A DNA stretch of 25,936 nt from the IMG/VR virus record IMGVR_UViG_2778261639_000014, positions 1 to 25,936 of that record; one strand, given 5' to 3'. The translations under genes and the position numbers were made by a program. The notes beneath the pieces were generated by a model, which was not told the DNA's origin, did no database searches, and worked only from the letters and a program-made list of their open reading frames with translations. Shown here one piece after another: positions 4,709-23,640 of the stretch; within the stretch, counting starts at the first letter, position 1; each line of letters begins with the position of its first letter. Source of the DNA: a virus. Lineage: Duplodnaviria > Heunggongvirae > Uroviricota > Caudoviricetes.

Positions 4709-4710
4709 TA

Positions 4711-5884: not shown

Positions 5885-5935
5885 AGAGAATGCTATGTAC
5901 AAGCATCTGTGCATACATTATTATTTTATGCAGCA
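5885..5935 (+). promoter_or_regulatory. par promoter/operator region
   Basis: AT-rich region 40-90 bp upstream of parA with two inverted repeats: ATGCT-N7-AGCAT (~5890-5906) and TGCATA-N11-TATGCA (~5910-5932). Consistent with an autoregulated par operator. Confidence 0.5.
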
Positions 5936-5978
5936 TTTTTAAGTAAATTCAAAAATACAGCATAAAGGATGACTTTCG

Positions 5979-7175: not shown

Positions 7176-7191
7176 GGAGTAAGAAACCCCC

Positions 7192-8193: not shown

Positions 8194-8197
8194 ACTT

Positions 8198-8285
8198 TCG
8201 CCATTCAAATTTCACTATTAACATACTGTTTTTAAAGTAAATCCATCTAAAATTTCAAGGTGAAATCGCCACGATTTCACCTTGG
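8198..8285. other. parS: Partition site parS (P1 type)
   Basis: Box B TCGCCA (8198-8203), box A ATTTCAC (8209-8215), AT-rich ~45 bp spacer (IHF-bend-like), inverted box A GTGAAAT (8260-8266), box B TCGCCA (8266-8271), box A ATTTCAC (8274-8280). Confidence 0.85.
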
Positions 8286-8337
8286 ATTTTACCTTCCGCC
8301 CCTACTCCCGAAAAAAATAAAAAAATTGCTTGTCACG

Positions 8338-8368
8338 AGAAAGTCAACAAGTGACTTTCAATAAAATC
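8338..8368 (+). promoter_or_regulatory. Late (Lpa-dependent-type) promoter upstream of the gene-23-like operon
   Basis: Inverted repeat AAAGTCA-N5-TGACTTT followed 3 nt later by a -10 TAAAAT and no -35. Fits the organisation recalled for P1 late promoters. Confidence 0.5.
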
Positions 8369-8397
8369 TCTTCCGAAAAGGGATTCACACAAGTGCC

Positions 8398-10125: not shown

Positions 10126-10151
10126 TCAGGGGAAGTTCTCCGTTTAACATA

Positions 10152-10170
10152 GCGCCCCCGTGCGGGGCGC
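10152..10170 (+). other. Intercistronic GC-rich hairpin without U-tract
   Basis: GCGCCCC-CGTGC-GGGGCGC between the gene-23-like and sheath genes. No T-run follows, so probably an RNA processing or stability element rather than a terminator. Confidence 0.4.
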
Positions 10171-10185
10171 ATAACAGGGAAAGTT

Positions 10186-11775
10186 ATGTCTCAATATTCA
10201 ATTCAACAGTCATTAGGTAATGCATCCGGCGTCGCTGTTAGCCCGATCAATGCCGATGCGACGTTATCTACCGGTGTTGCATTAAATAGCAGCTTGTGGG
10301 CTGGTATTGGCGTATTTGCGCGTGGCAAGCCGTTTACTGTTCTTGCGGTTACTGAGTCCAATTACGAAGATGTTCTCGGCGAACCGCTGAAGCCGTCTTC
10401 CGGCTCACAGTTCGAACCAATTCGCCATGTGTACGAAGCTATTCAGCAAACGTCTGGTTATGTTGTCCGTGCTGTTCCGGATGATGCGAAGTTCCCGATT
10501 ATTATGTTCGATGAATCAGGCGAACCGGCTTACAGTGCGTTGCCATACGGTTCTGAAATTGAACTTGATAGCGGCGAAGCCTTTGCTATCTACGTTGATG
10601 ATGGTGATCCGTGTATTTCACCTACCCGTGAGTTAACCATCGAAACGGCAACAGCGGACAGCGCAGGTAATGAACGCTTCCTCCTGAAACTGACCCAGAC
10701 GACTTCGCTCGGCGTGGTAACGACCCTGGAGACACACACTGTGTCTTTGGCGGAAGAAGCAAAAGATGACATGGGCCGCTTGTGTTATCTGCCTACGGCT
10801 CTGGAAGCCCGTTCTAAATATCTGCGCGCGGTTGTTAATGAAGAGCTGATTTCGACGGCGAAAGTAACAAATAAAAAATCGCTGGCGTTCACTGGCGGTA
10901 CCAACGGCGATCAGTCGAACATTTCCACTGCTGCTTACCTGCGCGCGGTGAAAGTGCTGAACAATGCGCCGTACATGTACACCGCTGTTCTCGGCCTGGG
11001 TTGCTATGACAATGCGGCGATCACTGCGTTAGGTAATATCTGTTCTGATCGCTTGATTGATGGCTTCTTTGATGTCAAACCGACATTGACGTACACGGAA
11101 GCGATCTCTGCTGTTGAAGATACCGGTTTACTTGGTACCGATTATGTAAGCTGTGCTGTCTATCATTTCCCGTTCTCCTGCAAAGACAAATGGACCCAAT
11201 CCCGCGTGGTCTTCGGTCTGTCTGGCGCGGCGTATGCGGCGAAAGCTCGTGGCGTCAAGAAAAACTCCGATGTCGGCGGTTGGCATTACTCACCGGCTGG
11301 TGAAGAACGTGCCGTCATTGCTCGTGCATCACTTCAACCGCTGTATCCGGAAGACACCCCGGACGAAGAAGCTATGGTCAAGGGCCGACTCAATAAAGTA
11401 TCTGTAGGTACTTCGGGCCAGATGATCATCGATGATGCTTTAACTTGCTGCACGCAGGACAACTATCTGCATTTCCAGCACGTCCCATCCCTGATGAATG
11501 CAATCAGCCGTTTCTTTGTCCAGTTAGCCCGACAGATGAAGCATAACCCGGACGGCATTACTGAGTCTGGCCTGACTAAAGGGATGACCAAACTTTTGGA
11601 TCGCTTTGTCGCCTCCGGCGCTCTGGTGGCTCCTCGTGATCCTGATGCTGACGGTACAGAACCGTATGTGCTGAAAGTTACGCAGGCGGAATTCGATAAA
11701 TGGGAAGTAGTCTGGGCCTGCTGCCCGACTGGCGTAGCCCGTCGTATCCAGGGCGTACCGCTGCTTATTAAGTAA
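10186..11775 (+). CDS. Contractile tail sheath protein (putative, P1 gene 22-like)
   Basis: 529 aa. Contains GGWHYSPAG, resembling the G-x-W-x-x-P-A-G motif I associate with sheath proteins. Size fits a ~57 kDa sheath. Confidence 0.65.
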   Translation: MSQYSIQQSLGNASGVAVSPINADATLSTGVALNSSLWAGIGVFARGKPFTVLAVTESNYEDVLGEPLKPSSGSQFEPIRHVYEAIQQTSGYVVRAVPDDAKFPIIMFDESGEPAYSALPYGSEIELDSGEAFAIYVDDGDPCISPTRELTIETATADSAGNERFLLKLTQTTSLGVVTTLETHTVSLAEEAKDDMGRLCYLPTALEARSKYLRAVVNEELISTAKVTNKKSLAFTGGTNGDQSNISTAAYLRAVKVLNNAPYMYTAVLGLGCYDNAAITALGNICSDRLIDGFFDVKPTLTYTEAISAVEDTGLLGTDYVSCAVYHFPFSCKDKWTQSRVVFGLSGAAYAAKARGVKKNSDVGGWHYSPAGEERAVIARASLQPLYPEDTPDEEAMVKGRLNKVSVGTSGQMIIDDALTCCTQDNYLHFQHVPSLMNAISRFFVQLARQMKHNPDGITESGLTKGMTKLLDRFVASGALVAPRDPDADGTEPYVLKVTQAEFDKWEVVWACCPTGVARRIQGVPLLIK

Positions 11776-11784
11776 GGAAATACA

Positions 11785-12600
11785 ATGAGCAAAAACTTTT
11801 TTCAATCCGGGGCATTTTTGGGGAATGGACTGTCCCGTTTCGCTTTGAACTCTGATCCTGTGCAGCTGATGGAGTCTGCCCGAGCAAGCGCTGAACCGCC
11901 AACAGATCCGGTTATTAATAATAATCCGGAACCGGCGGCACAGACTAACGATAACGTTCCATCTGCCCCGGCTCCTGAGCAAATCCTGGAAGGGAAAGAC
12001 GGTAAAGAATGGACCGTCGAACAGGCGCACCAGATGATTCTGGAAGCTGCAAATCGAAGTGCTATGCAGAATGCGTTGAGTGATGCGGCCGACGCCGTTT
12101 TCGCCTGGGCTGATAGCGGTGATCTGACTTTCGACTCCCTTGATGGTTTCGTTCAGGCTATCGCTGGTATCTCTGATGACGACGACTCCGAAGTTACAGA
12201 AGAACAGGACGATGCCTATAACGAAGCATGGGCAAATGTTGCTGACTTCCTCGCAGCATGCGGTGTAGATGATGACCTGATCGAAGCACTGGCTGACGAT
12301 GAAGACGACGACGCAGCTGCTGATGTTGGTGCCTCTATCGCTGGTTTAGATAGCGACGACCGCGACGAACTGGAAGCGGCGTTTGTTGTTGCTGGCACTT
12401 CTGATGAAATGCTGACTGAAGCATTTAAGAAGGTTGTTCGTAATGGTGAGATCAAACTCATCCGTAAACGCCTGCGTAAAAAACGTCTGACTGCGGCTCA
12501 AAAATCGGCGCTGAAAAAAGCGCGTCGAAAAGCCCAGACCGGCGCGGCAAAACTTGCCCGCAAAAAGTCAATGAAACTGCGCCGTAAGCGCCTTGGCTAA
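11785..12600 (+). CDS. Charge-segregated protein (acidic body, basic C-terminal tail)
   Basis: 271 aa with AAGGAAA SD. Long D/E-rich stretches (DDDDSEVTEEQDD, DDEDDDAAADV) and a K/R-rich final ~50 aa (KRLRKKRLTAAQKSALKKARRKAQTGAAKLARKKSMKLRRKRLG). No enzymatic motif. Confidence 0.6.
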   Translation: MSKNFFQSGAFLGNGLSRFALNSDPVQLMESARASAEPPTDPVINNNPEPAAQTNDNVPSAPAPEQILEGKDGKEWTVEQAHQMILEAANRSAMQNALSDAADAVFAWADSGDLTFDSLDGFVQAIAGISDDDDSEVTEEQDDAYNEAWANVADFLAACGVDDDLIEALADDEDDDAAADVGASIAGLDSDDRDELEAAFVVAGTSDEMLTEAFKKVVRNGEIKLIRKRLRKKRLTAAQKSALKKARRKAQTGAAKLARKKSMKLRRKRLG

Positions 12601-12635
12601 AGGAGGAGGCCGGAGAACTCCGGCCTTTAACTTGA

Positions 12636-13217
12636 ATGGCACCTATACCTTATGGGGTTTACAGCCAGGCTGACGGTGTATCGCCATTTCTGAAAGTTAC
12701 TTTAACGAACTCTCAGTACCAGGTTACCGGATATATCAGCCAGGGGGCAGCAATGAACATGGCCCAGAATTGGGAAGCGCCGTTTACCGGTATGTCCATG
12801 GGGTCTGTTGCTGGTGCTTTCAGTGGTTTTGCGCAGGTTGGTACTGAAACAACGTCGGTGGCCCGTTGGAACAGCTTAATGGTTTGGGAAGGGGGGACAC
12901 CGCCGACGTTCACGCTGCCCGTAACTTTCATTGCTTTGAACAATCCATTCATTGAAGTTTCAGGCGCTATCGCCGCGTTGACAGCCATGATTAGCCCGGA
13001 ACTAAAAGCGGCCAATGTTGGTGGTCGAATCCCGGAACGTGTGACGCTAAACATTGGTCGCCGGATCAACATCACCGATGTCGCTATCCAGGACTTAAGT
13101 TTTGATCTCGATGCGCCAAGGGACAGTAATGGATATTTCCTGAAAAACACCGTCAACCTCCAGTTGACCGGTTCTTCGATATATAACAGCTCCGATATTG
13201 TTCGGGCGTTCCAGTAA
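12636..13217 (+). CDS. Hypothetical late-operon protein (tail component candidate)
   Basis: 193-aa ORF preceded by a GGCCGGAG/CTCCGGCC hairpin. Gly/Ala/Thr-rich. No diagnostic motif. Confidence 0.5.
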   Translation: MAPIPYGVYSQADGVSPFLKVTLTNSQYQVTGYISQGAAMNMAQNWEAPFTGMSMGSVAGAFSGFAQVGTETTSVARWNSLMVWEGGTPPTFTLPVTFIALNNPFIEVSGAIAALTAMISPELKAANVGGRIPERVTLNIGRRINITDVAIQDLSFDLDAPRDSNGYFLKNTVNLQLTGSSIYNSSDIVRAFQ

Positions 13218-13228
13218 AAGGATTTTAT

Positions 13229-13738
13229 ATGGGGCACAATAACACTAAGGGAAACCGTAAATTTATTAAGGGCCGCTATACTGCCAACGCGGCCAAAGGC
13301 GAACGACTGGTATCTTCTGAATTCCAGCTCACTTTTGCAGGCCATGAAGATATCAGCGTACTGGTTCGCACGTCGCAAATTCCTGAAATGACCCGCGAGG
13401 ATGTGGAGGACTATGGTCCGAATGGTGTGAAGTTCAACCAGCACGGTCCAATTCGAAACTCTGGGGAAATCCAGGTCCAGTGCGTGGAGACTATCGAAGG
13501 CGATATTCTTCAGTTCATTAAGGATCGCATTGCGGCGAAGGACTATGTTGATATCACGATGGCTGCGACCCCTGAATCCAAATCTTCCGGGGTTAACGCT
13601 GTGACTAAAGCTGCTACAACAATTGAAATGTTGGACTGCAAAATCTACAGTGATGCAATCGACTTTAGTACCGAAGATGTGACTGCCGCTGTGCGCCCGT
13701 CACTTCGTATCGTCTACAACTGGATTGATTGGGATTAA
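13229..13738 (+). CDS. Tail tube protein candidate
   Basis: 169 aa with AAAGGA SD. Last gene of the sheath-containing operon, followed by a strong terminator. Size fits a myovirus tube protein; assigned by size and position only. Confidence 0.45.
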   Translation: MGHNNTKGNRKFIKGRYTANAAKGERLVSSEFQLTFAGHEDISVLVRTSQIPEMTREDVEDYGPNGVKFNQHGPIRNSGEIQVQCVETIEGDILQFIKDRIAAKDYVDITMAATPESKSSGVNAVTKAATTIEMLDCKIYSDAIDFSTEDVTAAVRPSLRIVYNWIDWD

Positions 13739-13757
13739 GAGCCATCCCTTGTATTTT

Positions 13758-13782
13758 AAAGCTCCTTCGGGAGCTTTTTTTA
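13758..13782 (+). terminator. Rho-independent terminator of the late structural operon
   Basis: AAAGCTCC-TTCG-GGAGCTTT hairpin followed by T7, 20 nt after the stop codon. Confidence 0.85.
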
Positions 13783-13909
13783 TAACTATTTTATATAAAA
13801 ATGCATCGATAACATTGTCTGGAGTTTTATGTTAGATTATTAATGTTCTAATAAACTACAATTATTGCGGTAGATGTTTGTGCCTGTACTGTTAAAGGGG
13901 GACTCTAAA

Positions 13910-14506
13910 ATGGCTGTGATTCCAATGTCGTACTCCCCGGGTACTGTCGCTCGTCGATTTTCGATCCTGGACGGAGTTACCATCCAGGGTGTGCTTTACC
14001 AGGTTATATGGGATTCCAAAACCCCATTTGCAGCTGTAATAGAGGCTGCGCCTTCTGTTATCGATGGTGATATGCGGCATAAGGTTGTCGCTACTCTTGA
14101 ACTTCAACGTCGCCCGCAGCTTGAAGGCGTACTGGTAAGGAAGTTCTGGGAGGATAGCGATGTTGGCCAGATTGAAGGTATCGTGGTTGATGGAACTGTC
14201 CGGGATGTCGGTTTAGCTACTTTTGTTTACGAAACCGTAGCCTCAAAAGCTGGTGTTGTTTTGCTCAGTGATAATGAGCAATACGAAGGTGGAAAAGCTC
14301 TTTGGCAACATATCGCCCGTCGCTCTTCCGAGCTAAAAGTGTTTATCCTCGACACCGATGCTGCTCAGTATTACCCGTTTGACGGCGAACGTGTTTGCTA
14401 TGACGGGAAAAGTATTCCTGAATCCGAGATATGGAGTGAACATCCGGATCGAAGTAAGCATGGGGTTGTTCTTGTCGCAGAATCCATAACTGGAAAGGCG
14501 GCATAG
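13910..14506 (+). CDS. Hypothetical protein (orphan gene with its own promoter)
   Basis: Track ORF 13874..14506; ATG 13910 preceded by AAAGGGGGA. 198 aa. Preceded by a ~100-bp AT-rich promoter-like region. No recognisable domain. Confidence 0.55.
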   Translation: MAVIPMSYSPGTVARRFSILDGVTIQGVLYQVIWDSKTPFAAVIEAAPSVIDGDMRHKVVATLELQRRPQLEGVLVRKFWEDSDVGQIEGIVVDGTVRDVGLATFVYETVASKAGVVLLSDNEQYEGGKALWQHIARRSSELKVFILDTDAAQYYPFDGERVCYDGKSIPESEIWSEHPDRSKHGVVLVAESITGKAA

Positions 14507-14688
14507 CAGTAAAAAATTCCTTGCTCCTTAAAAGGGGAGAGGGTTAATCTACGTATGCTAAGCATAGGTATGGCCCCGGTTAATGTTAAGCGTTGTGCGG
14601 GACGCATAATGTTTACTGGGGCTTTCTTCTATCTGCTTTTCGGGGAATGCCTGAAGCAGATAGCCTCAAGCACACCGCAGCGGGTGTA

Positions 14689-14934
14689 TCAATGTCTGGC
14701 TTTTTTTCTATAGAAATCACCTGGAAGGGTGAATATCCACATCAGAAGAAATGTTGCAGCAAACATGATCCCTAATGGCCAGACCGCGCCAAAGAAAATC
14801 CATACTAAGATCTCCTCTGCTCGTTCTTTGCGGTCGATATCGACAAGCATTTTTCGGCTGATCATGTATACACAGAAGCCAATACAAACATATCCTGCAA
14901 AAGCGATCGCTAACTGTAAAAAATCAGATTGCAT
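14689..14934 (-). CDS. Small two-helix membrane protein
   Basis: Track ORF 14689..15015; ATG at 14934 preceded by GAGG. 81 aa with two hydrophobic helices (LQLAIAFAGYVCIGFCVYMI; ILVWIFFGAVWPLGIMFAATFLLMWIF) and a basic C terminus. Confidence 0.5.
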   Translation of the reverse strand: MQSDFLQLAIAFAGYVCIGFCVYMISRKMLVDIDRKERAEEILVWIFFGAVWPLGIMFAATFLLMWIFTLPGDFYRKKARH

Positions 14935-14964
14935 CTCCGACCTCAAACTGAAAACGCCAGGTGA

Positions 14965-14981
14965 CTCCAGATTAGAGCAAT
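14965..14981. promoter_or_regulatory. C1 operator-like site between repL and the small membrane-protein gene
   Basis: Core ATTAGAGCAAT (14971-14981) matches the conserved half of the C1 operator; the upstream half is degenerate. Lies 4 bp below the repL stop and ~35 bp upstream of the membrane-protein start. Confidence 0.45.
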
Positions 14982-14984
14982 CTA

Positions 14985-15830
14985 TCACCCTCTGAATCCT
15001 GCCGGTATACCCCATTGTTCGTTATCTTTATTTTTGGCTAAAACCGCATTAAGAGCTTCGTTTACCGTCATGCAATGCGGCAGATTATCGAAGTTTGATA
15101 CCCCGCCAATATCAGGAGAACGCTTGTTCTTCAGGTAAGCATATTTCCGCGCTGCCGCCTCTACTTTCTGCTTGAACTCATGTTTTTGAGCGCGTTTTTT
15201 GGATAACCGCAGATTGTCAGCCTTTGCTTTTGCCTCAGCGATCCATGAAGTCAATTTTTTGAGTCTGGTCGTTCCGGCACCGCCGGAAACTGATCTTTTT
15301 GTTTTTTTAACTTGTGACTTCTTATTCTTTATTGCCACGTCATCCTGACAGGGGGAGGGGGTATCATTTTGACATGGGGGTGTGGATAAAAAATTAAATA
15401 AAGCCAATGTCTTAGCGAGAACAGCTTTAACCTTGGTTGCCGCTGAAGAGATCTTTAATTTGCTTTCAATCAGCGCATTTTTGGCTTGTTGTGCGAAGGC
15501 CAAAAAGGATGGTGTAAACCGGTACAGGTTAGCGCGACGTTCATGGTGATCGCCGATAACAATCTCTACAGACAGAATTCCTTTGTTTACAGCTTCACGG
15601 AATGCACGAACGACGGTTGATTGGCTATAACCAGTTTCTGCCGCGATCAGGCGGTGAGGCTTGTGAATGAAGTATTCACTAGTTGTTGCCGCGAGATTTG
15701 CACATTGCGACAGGATATGCCCGGCGCTACGGGATAGACCGGAGTGTGTTACAAAGCAGGCCAATTCATAGCCAGAAAAAGTAAAATCGCTCATCGTTAT
15801 ACAGCTCAGGAAAGTGACTTTAGCCAGCAT
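14985..15830 (-). CDS. repL: Lytic replication protein RepL
   Basis: 281 aa from the track start; internal ATG at 15794 is an alternative. Matches P1 RepL as recalled (MSDFTFSGYELACFVTHSGLSRSAGHILSQ). Directly downstream of kilA as in the P1 kilA-repL operon. Confidence 0.8.
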   Translation of the reverse strand: MLAKVTFLSCITMSDFTFSGYELACFVTHSGLSRSAGHILSQCANLAATTSEYFIHKPHRLIAAETGYSQSTVVRAFREAVNKGILSVEIVIGDHHERRANLYRFTPSFLAFAQQAKNALIESKLKISSAATKVKAVLAKTLALFNFLSTPPCQNDTPSPCQDDVAIKNKKSQVKKTKRSVSGGAGTTRLKKLTSWIAEAKAKADNLRLSKKRAQKHEFKQKVEAAARKYAYLKNKRSPDIGGVSNFDNLPHCMTVNEALNAVLAKNKDNEQWGIPAGFRG

Positions 15831-15859
15831 TACAATGCTGGTGGTTCTTACTACGTCTG

Positions 15860-16660
15860 TTAGCGCGTTGCCGCGACAGGTACCAGCACACCAGCATCAA
15901 GCAATCGCTTCATCAGCCACTGCTGACCTTTGCCGGTTATACGAGTCGTGAAAGAAATCCTGCTTCCATTGCTTGTATCGATCACGGTTTCTTTAAGGGT
16001 GAAATACCCACGGGATATGTATTCTTGTTTGGGGACGTTCCTGCGTTCACCGGTTGCGATCAGAATTCCGTTATCACGCAACCAGGTGAAGAGATAGTTT
16101 TGGCCCAGGCCGAGCACTTTGGCATAGTTGCCGATTAGAACTCCGCTGGCGGTAGCAACGCGTTCGGCGAATTCGACTTTAGGTGCATCCATAAGCATTT
16201 TTTGCTCCAGCCGTTGCTTTTGCTCTGCCAGGTCGGCAGCCAAACGGAGAGCTTCAGGGAGACTCTGCGGAATAGCAGGTTGTAATCTTCCGGCTCGATA
16301 GTCGATAAATGTCTGGTTTACCTTCAGCCGAAACGCGGGAGAAATCCAGCCTGCGTACTCCACAGCGAGCAATTCATGGGCAAAAGTGCCGCCGCCACGG
16401 CCTTCGAAAGAAACTATGCAATTCTGCATAGTTTCTTTTTCAAGCTCTTCGATGAGCTGTTTGGCTGACAGCGTTCTTAGCCATTGAGCTGGCGCTTTAT
16501 GGGCACCGAGTCCGCTCGCTCTGTGTAGAGCATTAAGGTTGTAACGGCCAGCGCGGTCGGTCGTAATTTCAACACCACAAATAACAGGCAGAGTGGTTGA
16601 AGGATCGACATTTTGATGAAGGTTTGATATATTCATATCCGCATTGAATGTTTGTTGCAT
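15860..16660 (-). CDS. kilA: KilA (KilA-N DNA-binding domain plus antirepressor-type C-terminal domain)
   Basis: 266 aa with GGAGAAAAA SD. C-terminal half (IPQSLPEALRLAADLAEQK ... TGKGQQWL) is clearly paralogous to the C terminus of the upstream ant-like protein. Preceded by a C1 operator. Confidence 0.85.
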   Translation of the reverse strand: MQQTFNADMNISNLHQNVDPSTTLPVICGVEITTDRAGRYNLNALHRASGLGAHKAPAQWLRTLSAKQLIEELEKETMQNCIVSFEGRGGGTFAHELLAVEYAGWISPAFRLKVNQTFIDYRAGRLQPAIPQSLPEALRLAADLAEQKQRLEQKMLMDAPKVEFAERVATASGVLIGNYAKVLGLGQNYLFTWLRDNGILIATGERRNVPKQEYISRGYFTLKETVIDTSNGSRISFTTRITGKGQQWLMKRLLDAGVLVPVAATR

Positions 16661-16729
16661 TTTTTCTCCAAATTTGCATCAACCTTCAATCACCAGCTCG
16701 AAATGGTGATTCTTTGCACTTAGAAAACG

Positions 16730-16746
16730 AAATTTATTAGAGCAAA
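16730..16746. promoter_or_regulatory. C1 operator (P1 Op53-like) controlling kilA-repL
   Basis: AAATTTATTAGAGCAAA is the reverse complement of the C1 operator consensus with one mismatch, ~70 bp upstream of the kilA start. Confidence 0.75.
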
Positions 16747-16789
16747 TTTTTCTGGCCCGATCCAGATCGGGTTGGTCGATCTGCTCAGA

Positions 16790-16818
16790 AACCTGCCAGT
16801 TTGCTGGCAGGTTTTTTC
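16790..16818. terminator. Hairpin terminator between ant and kilA
   Basis: CCTGCCAG-TTTG-CTGGCAGG flanked by an A-run on one side and T6 on the other. Strong in the + direction, weaker (short U-tract) for the minus-strand ant transcript. Confidence 0.5.
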
Positions 16819-16823
16819 TTTTG

Positions 16824-17867
16824 TTAACCTATTGCTACTGGTTTTAACAAACCAGCATCAAGTAGCTTGCGAGTTAACCACTGCTGGCCTTTACCCGTTA
16901 ATTGGGGCGTCAGCCGTATCTGGTAGCCATTTTCATCATCCAGCACCACTTCTTTCACCGTGAAATATCCGGCGTTGATGTACTGCTGGCGCGGTACGTT
17001 TTTGCGCGCACCAAAAGCCATGAGAATGCCGTTCTGGCGCAACCATGAGAAAAGGGCGTTTTGCTTAAGTCCAACGACCTTTGCAAAGTTCCCGATCAGG
17101 ATTCCATTAGCCGCTGATACCCGGTCGGCAAAATCGACTTTAGGGGCTGCGGCCACCAGCTGTTGTTCCAACTGCATTTTCTGTTCTGCCAACTCGGCAG
17201 CCAGGCGTAGAGCTTCTGGTAATGTTTGGGGGATCGATGGGGTAGGTGAGTTTGCCTGCTGCAATTCTTCCAGTTTGTCGATCAGCGAACGGCGGACCGC
17301 TTTCGATTCGCGCGCGGCGACTCGCAGGGCTTGTTTGTAGGTCATGGTTATGACCTCAAAAGAGCGCCCGGCCCTTGTGCCATGGGATTTTACGAAAGTT
17401 TCGTAAAATTCCCCATCAAGTTCATCCTTAATTCTATTGAGAAAATCGTTATTGCGGATCTCATTTTCCCTACATAGCTTGCGCGCATCATTAACCATCT
17501 TTAACAGCGTCTGGCTGTCGATTGTGTCTCCAGTGTTGGAGATAACATTCACAGCTGGTGATGGCGTAGCTGAAGCAACAGATGCTGGTTTTTTAACATT
17601 CAAATTATTACTGGTCATTCTATGTGCCTCCTTTCTCATTTCTGCTGCCACCGTTGCGTAACGTAGACGTCCTTGTTCAATCAAATAATCCCTGATCTCG
17701 GCTATCAGTAGCCTGTTGATCACAGCCTTATCTGTTCGGGTATAAAAACGCCTGGTTATCATGAAATAGTTGGCAATTGCGCCGGGGATCTCCCGTGTCG
17801 GCATACAGGCAGTATGCAGGGCGATCGCTTCGGCTATTTCATTACGGGTGACGAGAGGTTTTTTCAT
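16824..17867 (-). CDS. ant: Antirepressor (P1 Ant-like)
   Basis: 347 aa. Central Rha/AntA-like region and C-terminal antirepressor domain shared with KilA. Preceded by an overlapping 73-aa ORF and a C1 operator, as in the P1 immI operon. Confidence 0.8.
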   Translation of the reverse strand: MKKPLVTRNEIAEAIALHTACMPTREIPGAIANYFMITRRFYTRTDKAVINRLLIAEIRDYLIEQGRLRYATVAAEMRKEAHRMTSNNLNVKKPASVASATPSPAVNVISNTGDTIDSQTLLKMVNDARKLCRENEIRNNDFLNRIKDELDGEFYETFVKSHGTRAGRSFEVITMTYKQALRVAARESKAVRRSLIDKLEELQQANSPTPSIPQTLPEALRLAAELAEQKMQLEQQLVAAAPKVDFADRVSAANGILIGNFAKVVGLKQNALFSWLRQNGILMAFGARKNVPRQQYINAGYFTVKEVVLDDENGYQIRLTPQLTGKGQQWLTRKLLDAGLLKPVAIG

Positions 17868-18085
17868 AAAACCCCCTGAACGTCAGCAGAGAAGGGGAGG
17901 TTCCAGTAACTAAGTGAATTGCGCGAGTTAGTAGAAAAACGGGCAGTAAAAATGCAGGGGCCATCAGGCAATTGAGAGCGTGCTTCGTCTTCAGTTGCTG
18001 CGATAACGAAGTGATAGTGGTGTTTTTGGCAGGAGTAAAAGCGCCAGATAAATTCAGGATGAGTAGGGGTAGGGATAGTAGCCAC
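17864..18085 (-). CDS. icd: Icd-like small protein overlapping the ant start
   Basis: 73-aa ORF with GTG start and AGGAGG SD 9 nt upstream; its stop overlaps the ant start. Same size and arrangement as P1 icd as recalled. An alternative 81-aa frame (17842..18087) is also open. Confidence 0.5.
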   Translation of the reverse strand: MATIPTPTHPEFIWRFYSCQKHHYHFVIAATEDEARSQLPDGPCIFTARFSTNSRNSLSYWNLPFSADVQGVL

Positions 18086-18270
18086 AATGGCAGCCTCCTT
18101 TTGCTAATTTAAGGAGCTACCGCGTGAGGTTCCAATCTCAATGGCGGTAGCACTGACTGGGTTGGAACTACCGGCGCAAAAGGGAACCGGCCTGCCTTTC
18201 GGCAGCCCAGCCAGCACTACCATTGATCTCGGAGCTATGTGCTACGTATGGCTGTGCGATGGCATGACAC

Positions 18271-18410
18271 AAAAAAAGACGCTTTTGGCGTCTGTGTCGC
18301 CTTTTGCATTATCCGGGGTCTCAATCCCGGCACCCGTTTTAATGAGGTGCCTGATAAGCATAAACCGAAAATGCCTCAAGGCGCAAGAGGTCAGGCTCAA
18401 TGTAACATCG
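18271..18410 (-). ncRNA. c4-like antisense regulatory RNA region (immI leader)
   Basis: Between the operator/promoter at ~18415-18441 and icd: a T-arm-like stem-loop CCGGG-ATTGAGA-CCCGG (~18311-18336) and a GACGC-TTTTG-GCGTC hairpin followed by U7 on the minus strand (~18271-18292). Fits the position of P1 c4. Boundaries not determined. Confidence 0.3.
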
Positions 18411-18424
18411 GTAGTTAAAAAACA

Positions 18425-18441
18425 CAATTCATTAGAGCAAA
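18425..18441. promoter_or_regulatory. C1 operator-like site (P1 Op51-like) upstream of the immI-like module
   Basis: Core ATTAGAGCAA at 18431-18440 within a 17-mer with ~3 mismatches to the consensus. Lies 4 bp from the pacB stop codon. Confidence 0.6.
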
Positions 18442-18444
18442 TAT

Positions 18445-19929
18445 TCATTCATTAAGCCATGCCAGAGCTTCATCAACCTGCGCTTCGTCTTCGACGCTAA
18501 GCACTTCATCCTGGGGAACATAATCCGCCAGCATAGCGAAACAATATGTATCCCAATGGTCTGGTGAGTGCAGGTTGAGTTTTTTCTTCATATCCTCCTT
18601 ACTCATCACCTTCCATTGACCTGCGGAGTTAATCCCTACAGGGATTTTCGACGCTTCCTCAATAGTTTCATTACCCTTATCCAGTCTCATACGACCAGAT
18701 TTTACGGCCTCTGCGGCTTGAACATTGGCATAAGCACGTTTATCAAAGTACAGGCTCTTATCTTCACGGCTATGCATCTTTTTACCCCAGCGTATACGCT
18801 GTACGGTAATACCATAATACTCGTACATCAGATCCGCCGTTGCTTTACCCAGGCCATCGCCGTCTATCGCTATGGTGATATTGGGGAATCGCTCAGGATT
18901 ACATTCTGCGAAAATTTTGGCGGCAAGCTGCGTTTCTGTAACGTCTGTGTATTCCAGCATTCGATAGTTGATTACACGGCGTTTATTTCGCTGGCCGGAC
19001 ACCATCATGATATTGATAACGGACTTATCCCGTCCCGTACCACCAGCAACGTCCACACATGCAAGCCAGCCCCATCCTTTGGCAATCTTGACTTTCCGCC
19101 GCGTTGCACGTTCAACCTCATCACGTCCAAGAAGGAAGCCATCCTGTGATTTAGGGAATAGGCCGCGTACCTTAATCATGTACATAGGGTTATCACGCCC
19201 GCCGTACTCCGCCAGCTTCATTTTGATAAATGCTGGCGTTACCAACGGTGATTCCTCACTGTTAAGCGTGATCGCCGTATAAACGCCATCAGGGTTACCA
19301 GGACGCTTGGCCAGTTTATGGTGTGTATCGTAGAAATAGCCGCTTGGGCGTGTAGGCTGTGACAGCAATAAGATGCGGTTATCCTGTCCGGTAAGAGCAC
19401 CGGTGATGATACCGAAAGCTCTATCACTGACACCGGAGGCTTCATCGATAATATACAGAAGATGATCTGCGTGTTCACCGGCGAGAGCTTCTTCACTTCC
19501 CAGACGAAAGCCCTTCGGTACTACAGTCCATACACCTTTACCAGTAACCTCATAGAAAGCGGTTTCTGTCAGAACAAAATAATCAGCAAGCCATGGAAAA
19601 CGGCTGGTGGCAGTAGCCCAGTTTATCTTGATGTACTTGAATATACCGGTCATTACCTGCTGAATTTTGTTCGCAACGATAATGGCTCGGGCACCGGGAT
19701 ACATGATTATGAACAACATGATCATGATAGAAGTCATGTCTGATTTCCCGGTACCGTGACCAGACGAAACAGATGTCTTGCTACCCTGTTCCTGCACAGA
19801 CTCAATAATCAGATCCTGCTGCCAGGTAGGTGTTTTGCCGAACAAAACATCAGCGGCAGCAATCCAGTCATAACGATATAGCGCCACCAGCTCGCGCCAA
19901 CGTGGATCCGTTACGCAACTTCTGGCCAT
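18445..19929 (-). CDS. pacB: Terminase large subunit PacB
   Basis: 494 aa. Walker A GHGTGKS, Walker B-like [12 protein letters not shown]-terminal nuclease-like acidic region. Start overlaps the pacA stop. Confidence 0.9.
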
Positions 19930-21122
19930 TAATCATCATCCCCGTATAGCTTGCGGGTAACTTCTTCGTCTTCCTCCTCGTCTTCGTCCAAGTCTTGTTC
20001 CAGCCATGGGTCGTTTGATACACCTTCAGTATCAACATCTCCATAACCGCCTGTATCAACGATATCGGCGATTTCTTCCCTACGCTGCTCAATCCACAAT
20101 GCGGCATCGGCGCGGCGGTTGGCGGCCCGTTCTCGCGCAACTTTGTCCAGATCTTCAAGAGAAGGGCCACCGACGGCTGTTTGCCTTTCCTCATCATCGG
20201 TATTGGTCTTAGGAGCACGCAGATCGGCTTTGATTTGCTCCAGCATCAGGGGCGGCACTTTTCCGCCATGCGCCTCGATGAATTCAGCTGCTTCCAGCAC
20301 TGACCAGTTATTTTCACGCTTTCGTTCGTATGCCAGCTTAACAATGCCAGCTTGCCCCATAGACAAAGCGTGCTTTTCCGCCTCCCGGCTTTCTTTTCGA
20401 TAGTTATTCCGGATGCTGTAAATGGTGTTGATCAGGCTGCTTATCTGCGCGGAACAGCTGTTTAGCATGCTCGCGATACGATATTCAGGCGGAGTCCCTT
20501 CATCATCGTCTTTTTGCTGATCGCGCATTTCCTGCACCAGACGAATACACGTATCCCTGGCGTTCTCCAGCATAAGGAGATGAGAGAGAGACTTTTCCAG
20601 AAGAGTGGTTTCCAGAACATCAGCCCCGGACCGACGCAACATAGCGCGCGCGGCCTTCCGCGCTTCAACGTTATCTATCAGGTAATCGCCAGCTTCGAAT
20701 TCAAAGCGTTCACCATCATCATCCAGGGTGTCGCGTTCCAGGCGATCACGTAAGGTCCGGTGGGCGCGGGTGATCACGTCATGATCATCAGAACGATCAT
20801 TTATGCGCTTATTCTGGCGCTTCGCGTTCTCGACTGCGGCACTGACAACAGCATTAACTCTTTGTTTTTCAGCCATTTCAGCCGCAATGTGATCACCTGC
20901 ATGTTGATCATTAGAGTGATCAATGATCATGCTTTTTAGTGGCTTCCTGACTGGCTTATTTGGCTTGCGGCTGTCCGCTGTCCTGGTGTCTTCTTTGAAG
21001 GCACGGAGATAACGACGTGCGGTATTAGGGTTAAGATTAAACTCGGCGGCATACTGTGCGATGGTGTAACCACCATCTCGCGCCAGGCGAGCAAAATTCT
21101 TCTTGTGATCGTCCCAGGTCAC
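19929..21122 (-). CDS. pacA: Terminase small subunit / pac-recognition protein PacA
   Basis: 397 aa with GTG start. Immediately upstream of pacB and contains the pac hexamer clusters. Acidic C terminus. Confidence 0.85.
20742..20930 (-). other. pac: Packaging site pac (TGATCA/G hexamer clusters)
   Basis: Two clusters of GATC-containing hexamers inside pacA: ~20742-20798 (CGATCA, TGATCA x2, CGATCA) and ~20889-20928 (TGATCA x4), separated by ~90 bp. Matches the described P1 pac architecture of 4 + 3 hexamers flanking the cut region. Confidence 0.75.
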
Positions 21123-21207: not shown

Positions 21208-21660
21208 TCAGATACGTGCGGATGTGGCATTACCGTAATGACGGTGCTGACGGGCCACCTTATTGAAAAGTTGACGCGCCATTACCCAAGGCTGGTGCTC
21301 CCGGCGTTCCTTTTCGTCCTGCGTCATATAGAGTTCGTTCTGGAGTTTTTCATCAAACCGGCGCGGCGCGCGGCTGCGGCGAAAGAATTCAGGATTCAGA
21401 GAGTGGATCTGAAATCTACGTGGGCGTGTACTGTCATCAATCAAAACAGACGAATACTTAGACACAGCGATAGCCTTTAAGCGCAGATAAACGTCGCGCT
21501 TATCGACATCCAGATGCGGGTATTCCTTTTCAAGGATTGCTGCGAGTTCTTTCGCTGATAGAAGAGATTTAGTGCGGATCATGTAATCCGCAATCTCGTA
21601 CGATGTTATTCGTGAGTGATTTATTTCCATGAAGTGGCGTCCCTGCCAGTTAAGTAACAT
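21208..21660 (-). CDS. lpa: Late promoter activator Lpa (putative)
   Basis: 150-aa basic protein ~70 bp downstream of a C1 operator and immediately upstream of pacA. Position and size fit P1 lpa. Alternative start at ATG 21630. Confidence 0.55.
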   Translation of the reverse strand: MLLNWQGRHFMEINHSRITSYEIADYMIRTKSLLSAKELAAILEKEYPHLDVDKRDVYLRLKAIAVSKYSSVLIDDSTRPRRFQIHSLNPEFFRRSRAPRRFDEKLQNELYMTQDEKERREHQPWVMARQLFNKVARQHRHYGNATSARI

Positions 21661-21730
21661 CCTGTCACCTACTGATTAGCCCATGTCAACTAATCAACGT
21701 GGAATATAATACCCTAGATTAAAGAAGTAG

Positions 21731-21747
21731 CAATACATTAGAGCAAT
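21731..21747. promoter_or_regulatory. C1 operator-like site upstream of lpa
   Basis: 17-mer with core TTAGAGCAAT (21738-21747). Adjacent to the stop codon of the upstream gene and ~70-85 bp from the lpa start. Confidence 0.55.
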
Positions 21748-21748
21748 T

Positions 21749-22792
21749 TTACCTAACGCTCGACGAGTGATTTGTGATAGCGCCGACTCCAAGCGCGTAA
21801 TCAAAGAACAATCGTTGATGCATCGCCAGCCTACCGTGCGTCTTCTCCCAATTATCGCGGTCACGCTCAATATCACGCTGGCATGACTGGCACAGAGGAA
21901 TTGCGTAAATGTCATGCGCGCATAATCGACTATGACGAACGATATAAGGCGTAATGTGAGCGCCAGCTCCCGCCGCTCCACACCCACAGCATGGACGGGA
22001 AGCAACAAAGTCCATGTACTCAGGTAATTTTAGCGATTGCAGTTTTGGTATTTTGAAATGCGCCATGCCAGGGTCGGAGTCAACATCCACAGGGCATACT
22101 TTTGCACGCATCGGCGCGGCGCGTTCTTCCATCATCTGGACATATGCTGTAGCGCGATCGTCATACGGGCGAATATCCGCCTCTTTCAGAGGTCCGCTAT
22201 CCTGCGTTGCGGCTTTCATCTTATTTATTGATATACGGTAAACTTCTTCCGGCATCAGGTGCATCATGTTGCGCATGAAAGCCCACCAGCACAGTTCCTG
22301 AATACTTAAATCATGGCCATCTGAAAGCCCCATTTCCTGACGGGCGACATCCAGTATCCAGTTAACGCGATTATTATGCAGCGTTTCTTTCAGCTCATTA
22401 AAACCACGCATCCGGTAATGGTTATCGTGATGCCAGCACAACAACACCGCGCTCTTGTCTCGTTCAGCGTGGACAATATGGTTGTCACACCAACTACGAT
22501 CTGCGGCCTGGCATTGCCCCTCTTTCCTGCGCAACCACGCCACCAGCGCGTCAATTCCACCAATACGGCGAAACAGTTCATCGCTATTAAAAAACGGCTG
22601 CAACGCCTCATTTGTTGCCATAGTTTGCTCGGAAACAACGAGGCCGTCGTCCATGTGCTCGATTAACTCACGCGGCACCGGCTCCATAATAAATTTACGG
22701 CCAGCCTCCACCAGCTTTCTGACTTCCTGATCCACTTTGAATGTGGCGACGCCAAGCTCTTTTTGTACAAAGGGAGTAATTACGGCTTTCAC
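21749..22792 (-). CDS. Cys-rich protein of unknown function (position of P1 pdcB)
   Basis: 347 aa. C-terminal cluster CCGCG...H...C.HD...PLCQSCQ suggests a zinc-binding or HNH-like element. No other motif recognised. Confidence 0.5.
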
Positions 22793-22819
22793 ATCACACC
22801 TTTCATCACTGATTGGGCT

Positions 22820-22999
22820 TTATCTGCTGCCCGGCATTCTCTGTTTAAGCACAACCATTTCCTGACGGCATAACACAGCAATAGCGGTCCTGACACCAAC
22901 TTGCTTACCAACCAGGTATTGCTTTACCTCGCGGCGACTCACGCCATCAAGAAGCATCTTTAACGCTTCACGGGACAATTTGTTGTATTTGCGTGCCAT
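22820..22999 (-). CDS. Small basic protein, possible HTH regulator
   Basis: Track ORF 22820..23020; ATG at 22999 avoids overlap with doc. ~60 aa with a helix-turn-helix-like segment (LSREALKMLLDGVSRREVKQYL). Confidence 0.4.
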   Translation of the reverse strand: MARKYNKLSREALKMLLDGVSRREVKQYLVGKQVGVRTAIAVLCRQEMVVLKQRMPGSR

Positions 23000-23003
23000 T
23001 AAT

Positions 23004-23384
23004 CTACTCCGCAGAACCATACAATCTACGTAACGTGTCGGCGACAGAAGATACAGATATCTCGCCAGTCGCAGCGCCTACAGTAAGGTCTGCCAGTTCA
23101 GGTGAATCAAATACCTGCACCCCGTTACGGCGTAGAAATAGCAGCGCACTGTTTAGCGCGGTACGCTTATTGGCATCATTGAATATATGCCCTCTCGCTG
23201 TAGCCACCAGGTAGGTGGCGGAGACTTCGAAAAGGTCGGTGATCTCTTCGTAGGCAACTCTGGCCTGAACTCTCCCGATAATGGCCTCTGCCCTACCCGG
23301 ATCTGACATGCCAGGCAGGCCGCCGTAGCGGCTTATATTCGCATCATGAAGCGCAACAAGTTCTTCCGGTGATATATGTCTCAT
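23004..23384 (-). CDS. doc: Doc toxin (Fic/Doc family)
   Basis: 126 aa. Matches P1 Doc as recalled ([25 protein letters not shown]). Its ATG overlaps the phd stop as TAATG. Confidence 0.95.
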
Positions 23385-23605
23385 TATCGGTTAACCAGTT
23401 CCTTGTTGGTGGAGTCCAGGGTGTCAAACAGGGATGCAAATTCAGCATCCAGCGCCGCTTTTTTGTAGGCTTCGAAAGTAGCCTTGCTGACAATTACTGC
23501 TGGCTCACGGCCTCTGCGGGTGATTTCAACCTCTTCCCCGGCTTCAACATTGTTGAGCACTTCAGAAAGGTTGCCACGCGCGGTACGGAAGTTAATGGAT
23601 TGCAT
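23384..23605 (-). CDS. phd: Phd antitoxin
   Basis: 73 aa from ATG 23605 (track gives an upstream GTG at 23611). Matches P1 Phd as recalled ([39 protein letters not shown]). Confidence 0.95.
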
Positions 23606-23610
23606 AAACA

Positions 23611-23640
23611 CCTCGTGTACTCGTTATGTGTACACAATTA
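23611..23640 (-). promoter_or_regulatory. phd-doc operator/promoter with GTGTAC-centred palindromes
   Basis: Perfect 10-bp palindrome TGTGTACACA (~23627-23636) and a second GTGTAC half-site (~23615-23620) just upstream of phd, next to a TATAAT-like -10 on the minus strand. Confidence 0.5.

Follow-up and report, generated by a model that had tools for sequence, protein, structure and literature searches.

The post-doc locus of a P1-like phage-plasmid and the predicted HNH-type fold of PdcB

Two open reading frames and a C1 operator lie between the addiction gene doc and the late promoter activator gene lpa of a P1-like phage-plasmid, which raises the question of what the two genes encode, whether they belong together, and what the operator controls. 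The stretch of DNA analysed here (the window, 25,936 nucleotides) was 99% identical to RCS47, its closest relative at 99.2%, and 97% identical to P1. Every element that the original prediction had placed within 21731-22999 was found there, and its interpretation was supported in part. This region was 97-99% identical at the DNA level to P1, P7, and RCS47, in which it is annotated as pdcA, pdcB, Olpa, and Plpa. P1 (GenBank AF234172, NC_005856, and M95666) has these genes and this regulatory site too, with only allelic differences from the window, and the P7 counterparts of pdcA and pdcB are fdc and upf95.7. The two genes are already known, uncharacterised P1 genes, and the operator and promoter of lpa are likewise known. 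Together they form the 'post-doc' region of a P1-like phage-plasmid, in which two pieces with separate evolutionary histories precede the known regulatory site. Its genes and signals are listed below.

23384-23611, minus strand: phd (Pfam PhdYeFM_antitox match; P1 annotation)
23004-23384, minus strand: doc (Pfam Fic/DOC match; P1 annotation)
23004-23611, minus strand: phd-doc addiction operon, directly upstream of pdcA; the P1 annotation has Pphd upstream
22820-22999, minus strand: pdcA coding sequence, 59-aa form (PHROG 3345, Shine-Dalgarno, database lengths)
21749-22792, minus strand: pdcB coding sequence, 347 aa, GTG start, full-length YdfU/DUF968-family protein (ORF list, homology)
21731-21747, minus strand: C1 repressor operator Olpa (formerly Op94), ATTGCTCTAATGTATTG (consensus search; identity to P1 records)
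21706-21733, minus strand: sigma-70 promoter Plpa (formerly P94; promoter scan, P1 annotation)
21208-21660, minus strand: lpa, late promoter activator under Olpa/Plpa control (Pfam BPP1_LPA, E 3e-57; P1 annotation)

No Rfam match was obtained inside 21731-22999, the repeats in this region were only short chance ones, and a Foldseek search of the PDB gave a best E of 0.075 with no significant match. Both pdcA and pdcB have been reported to be non-essential, pdcB in PMC10067587, PMC10695390, and PMC10999674.

PdcB and its relatives

The predicted cysteine-rich 347-aa reading frame between doc and lpa was confirmed at 21749-22792 on the minus strand, with cysteine at 11 of its 347 residues, AAGGTG in front of the GTG start, and a TAA stop at 21749-21751. 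Its product was 96-99% identical to PdcB of P1, P7, and RCS47 and differed from the P1 protein at 14 internal residues. The comparison with P1 gave 26 synonymous and 14 non-synonymous differences (pN/pS = 0.15), and this low ratio indicates that pdcB is under purifying selection.

A profile search of the protein, as had been proposed with the original prediction, placed it in a family. Residues 161-337 corresponded to positions 1-171 of DUF968 (PF06147) with 169.3 bits against a cut-off of 27.8 (E 1e-49), and PHROG 96 covered the full length (E 9e-128). A library-wide HMMER search collected 131 representative YdfU/DUF968 relatives, most of them 320-350 aa long and collinear with PdcB from residue 1 to about 340. 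Library-wide phmmer and tblastn searches also aligned PdcB from residue 1 to about 340, including the N-terminal module, with proteins of 320-350 aa. The relatives include lambdoid-phage proteins annotated as YdfU family. YdfU of the E. coli Qin prophage, SfV Orf45, and mEp390 gp45 were collinear with PdcB over their full length, at about 25-30% identity over 98% of the query, and the Pfam architecture of this family is an unnamed N-terminal domain followed by DUF968. PdcB and the YdfU family have in common the N-terminal CQ...LCWHHDN module, the C-terminal zinc knuckles, and D294. They also share a position directly upstream of a late-gene regulator, which is Q for YdfU in lambdoid phages and Lpa for PdcB in P1-like elements; the lambdoid YdfU-type gene adjoins RusA, immediately upstream of Q. 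Apparent fusions in which the YdfU N-terminus precedes a tail-tip, collar, portal, capsid, or Q protein were regarded as chimeras produced by assembly or deletion, not as true domain architectures, because a single near-identical N-terminus recurs in all of them in front of unrelated phage proteins. PDB sequence searches with PdcB alone and with a 43-sequence family profile returned nothing at E up to 10, and PADLOC and NCBIfam gave no meaningful matches. No biochemistry of PdcB or of any YdfU protein was found in the literature.

The AF2 model of PdcB (mean pLDDT 84.3), read together with residue conservation, predicts two zinc-stabilised beta-beta-alpha modules.

22403-22513, minus strand: N-terminal zinc-knuckle beta-beta-alpha module, PdcB residues 94-130 (conservation, AF2)
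21860-21994, minus strand: C-terminal His-Me (HNH) finger core, PdcB residues 267-311, zinc cysteines kept and histidines replaced

The motif of the N-terminal module, C94-Q ... C/H102 ... L-C119-W-H-H/C122-D-N, was kept family-wide. C94, C119, W120, and D123 were invariant or nearly so, and positions 102 and 122 switched between cysteine and histidine. In the model, strands at 106-111 and 114-119 are followed by a helix at 120-129. Position 108, on strand 1, varied in both the P1 clade and the canonical clade. No Pfam family spans this module, and no homology was detectable to the C module, NinB, NinG, Ref, or Gp16. The two modules of PdcB have an analogous layout of zinc knuckle plus beta-beta-alpha fold. 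A diverged copy of the C-terminal HNH module was considered as the origin of the N module and was unsupported (hhalign probability 1.4%). A NinB/Orf-like domain, as described by Curtis et al. in Gram-positive DUF968 proteins, was also rejected for PdcB, as its N and middle regions showed no such similarity.

The cysteine- and histidine-containing cluster CC-G-C...H...C.HD...C..SC was present as described, at residues 267-309, and the C module has the beta-beta-alpha-metal fold of His-Me fingers. For its residues, 14 P1-clade representatives (64-99% identical) were compared with 34 canonical relatives. The zinc cysteines C268-x2-C271 and C301-x2-C304 were invariant and D294 was kept in all 14 P1-clade sequences. 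Among the canonical relatives, histidine occupied position 284 in 34/34 and positions 283, 305, and 309 in 33/34 each. These positions held Y/F (283), L/M/I (284, 14/14), Q (305, 14/14), and A/E/S/R/V (309) in the P1 clade, and Y283, I284, Q305, and E309 in the window. The P1 clade has neither a general-base histidine at the end of strand 1 (position 284), the feature that defines the His-Me finger superfamily (PMC5714182), nor a His/Asn/Asp metal ligand on the helix (305 and 309). Q305 or E309 could in principle bind metal; position 309 is not conserved. At the level of motifs, canonical YdfU proteins show DDPHH, a GHGxGGMGxK loop, and CxxC/H-H...LH, whereas P1-clade PdcB shows ITPY(I/L), a deleted loop, and CQxCQ..I(E/A). 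In the lambdoid relatives the C module is a canonical HNH finger (CxxC...DPHH...CxxC/H-H...H). P1-clade proteins keep its zinc ligands and the structural aspartate, but the general-base histidine, its neighbour, and both helix histidines are replaced. The C module was 76% identical within the P1 clade, similar to the rest of PdcB, and the module is still under constraint. Pfam HNHc_6 did not match the window PdcB and did match 20 of the 43 aligned family members.

The original prediction had read the cluster as suggestive of a nuclease element, and this part was unsupported or went too far: the residues Y, I, Q, and E occupy near-invariant histidine positions, and the histidine in the predicted motif is H279, which varies within the P1 clade (R/Q/H/N). 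H279 had also been considered as a catalytic histidine on a hint from the YbcO alignment; it was rejected since it is R, Q, or N in close relatives and lies before strand 1.

The HNH core of the YdfU/DUF968 family is related to two characterised RecA-dependent nucleases, P1 Ref and phiNM1 Gp16. The likeness of PdcB to both is one of fold and of profile similarity of the HNH core. Ref (PDB 3PLW; Pfam RecA_dep_nuc) is an HNH endonuclease that cuts RecA-bound DNA (PMC4330346). It is a 186-aa protein whose N-terminus is basic and disordered and whose HH pair is intact, whereas PdcB has 347 aa, a structured N-terminal zinc module, and none of the catalytic histidines. RecA_dep_nuc matched one YdfU/DUF968-family member weakly (E 0.015). 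The nearest experimentally studied relative of the HNH core was Gp16 of the Staphylococcus phage phiNM1, a RecA-dependent nickase with an HNHc_6 domain (hhalign 93%, E 3e-7; 29.1 bits on DUF968 against the cut-off of 27.8, which is marginal). Gp16 and PdcB share CxxC and CxxH zinc knuckles, and the gene for Gp16 is an early accessory gene beside recombination and replication genes. PdcB C271, C301, and C304 aligned to the Gp16 zinc ligands C148, C181, and H184, and the nuclease-centre residues H157, H185, and H189 of Gp16 (PMC12817073) corresponded to I284, Q305, and E309. Gp16 has a NinB-like N-terminal domain (PMC12817073), whereas PdcB showed no NinB similarity. Among Gp16 mutants, H157A kept growth inhibition, H185A and H189A relieved it partly, and zinc-finger mutants abolished it (PMC12817073); the biological effect of this HNH fold therefore does not depend strictly on the histidines. 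YbcO of the DLP12 prophage (DUF1364; PDB 3G27; His-Me group 7 of Jablonska et al. 2017) differs from PdcB as a single 96-aa domain that keeps the strand-1 histidine (AHI) and CSACH.

This partial dependence of Gp16 on its canonical histidines leaves room for the idea that PdcB is still an active nuclease that works through non-canonical residues, namely H293/D294, the clade-specific C291, or the N-module residues H121-H122-D123-N124. The fold and zinc ligands of PdcB are intact, the protein is under purifying selection, and both PHROG 96 and the RefSeq name call it an HNH endonuclease. Furthermore, H293-D294 and H121, H122, D123, and N124 are conserved family-wide and could form an active site of an unrecognised kind. 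However, all four near-invariant histidines are replaced, including the strand-1 histidine that defines the superfamily, and position 309 itself is variable. H293 and D294 are not substitutes, because canonical members have them alongside the HH pair, and the N module varies at its strand-1 position 108 in both clades. We consider an active PdcB nuclease unlikely. Our preferred reading is that P1-type PdcB has an HNH fold from which the histidines that such nucleases use to cut DNA have been lost, which is the only new point of this analysis. Judged from these residue replacements, the P1-type protein would not cut DNA by the HNH mechanism and is probably a non-cutting DNA-binding derivative. 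It may act as a non-essential accessory protein that binds DNA or recombination intermediates.

PdcA, a narrowly distributed three-helix protein

The small reading frame predicted between doc and pdcB was present, and 22999, where the predicted region ended, is the ATG of its 59-aa form. The ORF list gives pdcA as 66 aa (22820-23020), overlapping doc and with the same start as the P1 record. The ATG at 22999 lies 4 nt past the doc stop and 7 nt past GGAG, so that the Shine-Dalgarno sequence is inside doc. The PHROG 3345 alignment starts at Met8 of the 66-aa form, which is the first Met of the 59-aa form, and database PdcA entries are mostly of 59 aa and named PdcA. The 59-aa form is most likely the true pdcA, in preference to the 66 aa of the P1 record. 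Translation of pdcA is probably coupled to that of doc.

The suggestion of an HTH protein went further than the results. AF2 modelled three helices (2-17, 22-31, and 36-54; pLDDT 82.6, shallow alignment), but the model is a generic three-helix bundle with non-specific fold matches, and no HTH family matched. Searches with PdcA gave no Pfam match at E up to 1, none in PADLOC, and in NCBIfam only a 14-bit match to a transposase N-terminal domain (E 0.034), far below the cut-off. The HTH assignment is unproven.

The homologues found among 5.8 billion clusters were all at least about 70% identical, several of them truncated or frameshifted, and PdcA is confined to a narrow group of enterobacterial elements. 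Compared with P1, pdcA had 0 synonymous and 3 non-synonymous differences, too few to judge selection. Such a narrow family, with its broken variants, a pN/pS not below 1, and no family annotation, could be expected of a fortuitous reading frame in the doc-pdcB spacer that is kept by linkage and is not a functional coding gene. Against this stand the good Shine-Dalgarno sequence with a start 4 nt past doc, an ORF intact in more than 1100 plasmids, residues 12-33 nearly invariant across the variants, and a compact three-helix model that was confident even from a shallow alignment. A fortuitous pdcA is on this evidence improbable, and we favour a coding gene that travels with the phd-doc cassette.

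Olpa and the promoter of lpa

The C1 operator predicted at the 3' end of pdcB was borne out. ATTGCTCTAATGTATTG matched the asymmetric 17-bp P1 C1 consensus ATTGCTCTAATAAATTT at 14/17 positions and was base-for-base the annotated Olpa/Op94 of AF234172 and M95666. In GenBank M95666 the identical stretch of P1 is labelled as a site bound by the c1 repressor and regulating gene 10. Sites with at most three mismatches to the consensus numbered four in the window against 0.11 expected, and 0/100 shuffles reached four. Olpa begins 1 nt past the TAA stop of pdcB and overlaps the -35 element of Plpa. The promoter scan placed this -35 element (TTGCTA) at 21733-21728 and the -10 element (TATTAT) at 21711-21706, with a 16-nt spacer. 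Operator, -35, and -10 were identical in the P1 alignment. The lpa start site, transferred from the mapped site in M95666, falls at window position 21698, about 33 nt downstream of Olpa.

The established, primary role of Olpa is the repression of lpa's own promoter, because it overlaps the -35 element of a promoter with a mapped start site. Bof helps C1. In lysogens C1, together with Bof, would occlude Plpa, and induction would free lpa.

In lysogens, pdcB may be transcribed together with phd-doc-pdcA at a low level, as suggested by the gene spacing and by a simple scan that returned no consensus promoters or terminators. That scan also detected no terminator in the interval from the pdcB stop to lpa, so a C1 roadblock to read-through from Pphd is conceivable. 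The original prediction had suggested such gating, and a rival reading would make the gating of read-through into lpa the main purpose of Olpa. Like other autoregulated TA operon promoters, Pphd is active in lysogens, and its leakage into lpa has to be prevented; Olpa does lie downstream of the entire phd-doc-pdcAB unit. The stop-operator-promoter layout recurs in the Cronobacter phage JK004 and in a metagenomic locus (L005), which shows that the junction is kept. However, both keep it without phd-doc immediately upstream, so the arrangement cannot have evolved to gate the addiction operon. Furthermore, an operator over the -35 element with the start site about 33 nt downstream has the geometry of classical occlusion. 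Gating as the main purpose is very doubtful; a roadblock could be a secondary effect of promoter repression by C1.

Synteny of the two genes and its meaning

Synteny splits the pair: pdcA goes with phd-doc, and pdcB goes with lpa-pacAB. D6 keeps phd-doc-pdcA together, with its pdcB homologue about 5 kb away. JK004 has pdcB-operator-lpa-pacAB, with phd, doc, and pdcA absent immediately upstream, and in L005 pdcB is followed by an operator-like site and lpa and preceded by a C1 operator of its own. On one IncF plasmid phd-doc-pdcA is present, but what is left of pdcB aligns only as far as nt 278, and IS1 and IS5 lie downstream. Of 1216 matching plasmids, 1085, among them conjugative IncF plasmids, had the 3' end of doc, pdcA, and the 5' end of pdcB in one contiguous stretch.

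This contiguity, the D6 arrangement, and the tight spacing (4 nt from doc to pdcA with the Shine-Dalgarno sequence within doc, 27 nt from pdcA to pdcB) would suit pdcA, with or without pdcB, as an extra addiction component that modulates Doc, Phd, or expression of the operon. But the plasmid co-occurrence looks like the hitch-hiking of one nearly identical (>95%) DNA block, pdcB is broken after 278 nt in the one plasmid examined, a conjugative plasmid in the P1 record shares phd-doc only up to the doc stop, PdcA has no PADLOC, Pfam, or NCBIfam match and no clear constraint visible against P1, and Lehnherr et al. in 1993 reportedly obtained addiction from phd and doc alone, which together make an added addiction role highly improbable.

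The reading we prefer for the whole, a post-doc locus in which PdcB would no longer be an HNH nuclease and Olpa represses Plpa, is in our judgement reasonably probable. Few phages have been used in genetics as much as P1, and resistance genes are spread by P1-like phage-plasmids, yet pdcA and pdcB are still listed as 'function unknown'. On the regulatory side there is nothing new, since Olpa was already known as the operator of lpa. What the analysis offers in practice is a correction. The RefSeq label 'HNH endonuclease' is doubtful because four near-invariant histidines are replaced while the zinc cysteines are kept. Since the zinc scaffold is conserved but the catalytic histidines are gone, this name, given to PdcB of P1, P7, SJ46, and D6, is probably wrong for P1-clade proteins. 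The analysis further ties the entire uncharacterised YdfU/DUF968 family, which is frequent in lambdoid prophages including those of Stx phages, to the two RecA-dependent nucleases already known from phages, and this link suggests a concrete assay.

As a speculation that we rate as quite unlikely to be right in full, PdcB might be a naturally nuclease-dead descendant of a Ref/Gp16-like RecA-dependent HNH lineage; selection would have kept it in P1-like phage-plasmids, and it would still bind branched DNA or RecA filaments by means of its two zinc modules. It might be made in lysogens from the tail of the addiction operon and serve as a modulator that does not cleave, for instance by keeping Ref or host recombination in check on the plasmid prophage. 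If true, a nuclease-dead PdcB would be the first 'pseudo-nuclease' regulator described in the YdfU/DUF968 family.

Gene order of the locus

By its sequence, the window belongs to a P1-like phage-plasmid. Across 21600-23100, identity was 99.2% to RCS47 and 96.9-97.2% to P1 and P7, and the matching stretch in these records is annotated as doc, pdcA (fdc in P7), pdcB (upf95.7 in P7), and lpa.

Genes at the locus, all on the minus strand
23384-23611, minus, phd (ORF list; Pfam Phd/YefM)
23004-23384, minus, doc (ORF list; Pfam Fic/Doc)
22820-23020, minus, small ORF, pdcA (ORF list and sequence)
21749-22792, minus, 347-aa ORF, pdcB (ORF list and sequence)
21208-21660, minus, lpa (ORF list; Pfam BPP1_LPA)
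19929-21122, minus, pacA (ORF list and sequence)

The elements that the original prediction placed between doc and lpa were present; its coordinates coincide exactly with the operator's left boundary (21731) and, at the other end, with the start codon (ATG, 22999) of the small ORF in its shorter form. The features of this region are already known from phage P1.

At ~18055-18445, the gene order was unlike that of reference P1: the pacB 3' end (18445) abuts a c4-icd-ant module, not c1, and window positions 1-18055 match an RCS47 region ~30 kb from the pacB side. The same pacB-to-c4/icd/ant junction was found in ~260 plasmids at ~92% identity, and in pE148-2 c1 lies after the ant gene. Three minus-strand RNAs scored above the Rfam gathering score: the C4 antisense RNA (18140-18227, 76.7 bits), an isrK-like sRNA just upstream of it (18272-18350, 59 bits), and the sok antitoxin RNA (14502-14675, 72.9 bits). 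These matches suggest that the window carries an immI-type c4-icd-ant module together with a hok/sok locus.

Family and synteny of pdcA and pdcB

PdcB residues 161-337 matched Pfam DUF968 (E = 1e-49), and PHROG 96 ('HNH endonuclease') matched the protein across its full length; PADLOC, NCBIfam, and PDB sequence searches gave no match. Only 131 relatives were found in a HMMER scan of 1.84 billion representatives, most of them 320-350 aa long and collinear from residue 1 to ~340. By tblastn, relatives sit in lambdoid phages and prophages, some annotated as 'YdfU family'. The literature searches turned up no functional work on YdfU or PdcB, and pdcB is reported as non-essential or of unknown function (PMC10067587, PMC10695390, PMC10999674). 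In the representative library, a single near-identical YdfU N-terminus appeared joined to phage proteins, namely portal, capsid, tail-tip J, tail-collar, and Q antiterminator (P0038, P0046, P0048, P0050, P0053, P0055, P0057, P0078, P0080, P0133). These were rejected as real domain fusions; chimeras produced by assembly or by prophage deletion are the likeliest explanation.

Synteny separated pdcA and pdcB into two modules. In phage D6, phd-doc-pdcA stay together and the pdcB homolog lies ~5 kb off, beside ppp. pdcA was found in 1161 plasmids (297 conjugative). Of the 1216 plasmids matching the junction, 1085 had one unbroken block at ~98% identity, running from the 3' end of doc through pdcA and into pdcB as far as nt 93. 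In the conjugative IncF plasmid pDA33137-178 (L007, NZ_CP029580.1, 3395-4180), phd-doc-pdcA lies beside a type I restriction-modification hsd operon; its pdcB match is confined to the first 278 nt, with IS1 and IS5 copies downstream, and no DUF968 gene is among its annotations. The 'post-doc' DNA of P1 has entered many plasmids that are not phages, carried along with the addiction cassette.

pdcB accompanies lpa-pacA-pacB in Cronobacter phage JK004 and the metagenomic locus L005. The lambdoid YdfU-type gene is flanked by the replication genes on one side and by Q on the other; mEp390, for instance, has RusA, then the YdfU homolog, then Q, and the stop and start codons overlap. Because this gene type directly precedes the late-gene regulator in both phage types (Lpa in P1-like, Q in lambdoid), its position fits a delayed-early DNA-metabolism gene.

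The 59-aa version of pdcA is favoured over the 66-aa one annotated in P1, which starts inside doc. The preference rests on the Shine-Dalgarno position (the ATG at 22999 is 4 nt past the doc stop and 7 nt past GGAG), on the PHROG 3345 alignment, which begins at the Met of the 59-aa form, and on database entries, which are mostly 59 aa. The family is very narrow, all homologs among 5.8 billion clusters being at least ~70% identical. Between the pdcA genes of the window and P1, 0 synonymous and 3 non-synonymous changes were counted, a number too small to reveal constraint.

The C1 operator and the lpa promoter

The site ATTGCTCTAATGTATTG (21731-21747, minus strand) shares 14 of its 17 bases with the C1 operator consensus and begins 1 base past the pdcB TAA stop. 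The window held 4 consensus matches against 0.11 expected, a number never reached in shuffles. The sequence is identical to the annotated monovalent operator Olpa (formerly Op94) of P1, described in GenBank M95666 as 'c1 repressor binding site, regulation of gene 10 expression'. In a promoter scan, the -35 TTGCTA (21733-21728) overlapped the operator and the -10 TATTAT (21711-21706) followed after a 16-nt spacer; the mapped Plpa/P94 start (M95666) transfers to position 21698. Olpa is therefore the ordinary, already known occlusion of lpa's own promoter, and not a special gate on read-through from the addiction operon, as had been proposed.

Two more distant elements have kept this layout, in which the stop codon is followed by the operator and TTGCTA: JK004 (PdcB 66% identical; operator ATTGTTCTAATAGATTG) and L005 (PdcB 37% identical), the latter with an operator-like site at the corresponding place. 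phd-doc was absent immediately upstream in both, so the arrangement did not evolve for gating the addiction operon. As a secondary effect of Olpa, C1 may still roadblock read-through from Pphd; a simple scan gave no terminator between pdcB and lpa.

L005 (ena:ERZ27285404:k141_1583) is a divergent P1-like element. A separate C1 operator close to consensus, ATTGCTCTAATAAATTG, serves its pdcB homolog, with a TATTAT -10 on one side and the start codon on the other; the homolog is followed by the operator-like site and then an lpa homolog (L005 coordinates 350-366 and 1365-1400). In this lineage, the pdcB homolog would be C1-repressed and hence an early lytic gene.

The further C1 operator matches in the window, all on the minus strand, were at 1285-1301 and 16730-16746 (1 mismatch each) and at 18425-18441 (3 mismatches), just past the pacB stop and beside the c4 region. 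A 7-bp inverted repeat (TGATTAG / CTAATCA, 10-nt loop; 21673-21696), identical in P1, covers ~+3 to +26 of the lpa mRNA and is a possible 5'-terminal stem-loop. On the plus strand, 21683-21710 is promoter-like (ATGTCA, 16 nt, TATAAT; 10/12 positions), reads antisense into the pdcB 3' end, and uses the same AT-rich -10 region as Plpa. It is probably due to chance, since the region held 3 such sites against 3.5 expected from shuffles.

Fold and active site of PdcB

An AlphaFold2 model of PdcB from a 43-sequence alignment (mean pLDDT 84.3) contained two beta-beta-alpha units.

Residues 106-111 and 114-119 (strands), 120-129 (helix): unit 1
Residues 281-284 and 297-300 (strands), 302-310 (helix): unit 2

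Residues 1-160 matched no known family, and the N-terminal half had no detectable homology to the C module, NinB/Orf, NinG/Rap, Ref, or Gp16. A family-wide motif that includes P1 was found (C94-Q, C/H at 102, L-C119-W-H-(H/C)122-D-N), and the switching between C and H at residues 102 and 122 suggests that unit 1 has a second zinc site. H121, D123, and N124 may have a functional role. With its variable strand-1 position (108), this unit seems not to be a second active site.

In profile comparison, the C-terminal unit resembled Ref of P1 (85%), YbcO (72%), and Gp16 of Staphylococcus phage phiNM1 (93%), a recently characterised RecA-dependent nickase (PMC12817073). DUF968 is grouped with DUF1364 (YbcO) in group 7 of the His-Me finger classification (PMC5714182). 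Gp16 has a strong Pfam HNHc_6 match and a marginal DUF968 match; HNHc_6 was matched by 20/43 aligned family members, and the window PdcB was not among them.

The main new result was the degeneration of the PdcB active site, seen when 34 canonical members of the YdfU/DUF968 family were compared with 14 P1-clade representatives, 64-99% identical to the window protein.

Active-site positions in canonical members and the P1 clade
283: canonical H in 33/34; P1 clade Y or F
284: canonical H in 34/34; P1 clade L, M, or I
305: canonical H in 33/34; P1 clade Q
309: canonical H in 33/34; P1 clade A, E, S, R, or V
291: canonical K in 33/34; P1 clade C in 14/14
C268, C271, C301, C304, D294: canonical conserved to varying degrees; P1 clade 14/14

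The GHGxGGMGxK loop was deleted in the P1 clade, and the two intermediate sequences (D6-type, 37-39% identical) were likewise degenerate. In the alignment, the Gp16 nuclease-centre residues H157, H185, and H189 (PMC12817073) correspond to I284, Q305, and E309, and its zinc ligands align with C271, C301, and C304. H279, the His of the originally predicted motif, is R, Q, or N in close relatives. The proposed nuclease element thus held as a zinc-binding HNH-like fold and failed in its catalytic residues.

The degenerate module is still under constraint: the C module was 76% identical within the P1 clade, similar to the remainder of the protein, and the whole gene had a pN/pS of 0.15 against P1. 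Most probably, P1-type PdcB has kept a zinc-stabilised HNH scaffold and lost HNH catalysis. The main rival, a still-active non-canonical nuclease, appears unlikely. Growth inhibition by Gp16 was abolished by zinc-finger mutants, and His mutants had partial or no effect (PMC12817073), so loss of cutting need not stop a protein of this fold from acting on DNA. With moderate confidence, we regard PdcB as a DNA-binding protein derived from a recombination-associated HNH family, which is non-essential and probably does not cleave. We conclude that the RefSeq name 'HNH endonuclease' is probably an over-annotation for P1-type PdcB. The analysis adds an annotation correction and a testable link of the YdfU family to RecA-dependent nucleases.
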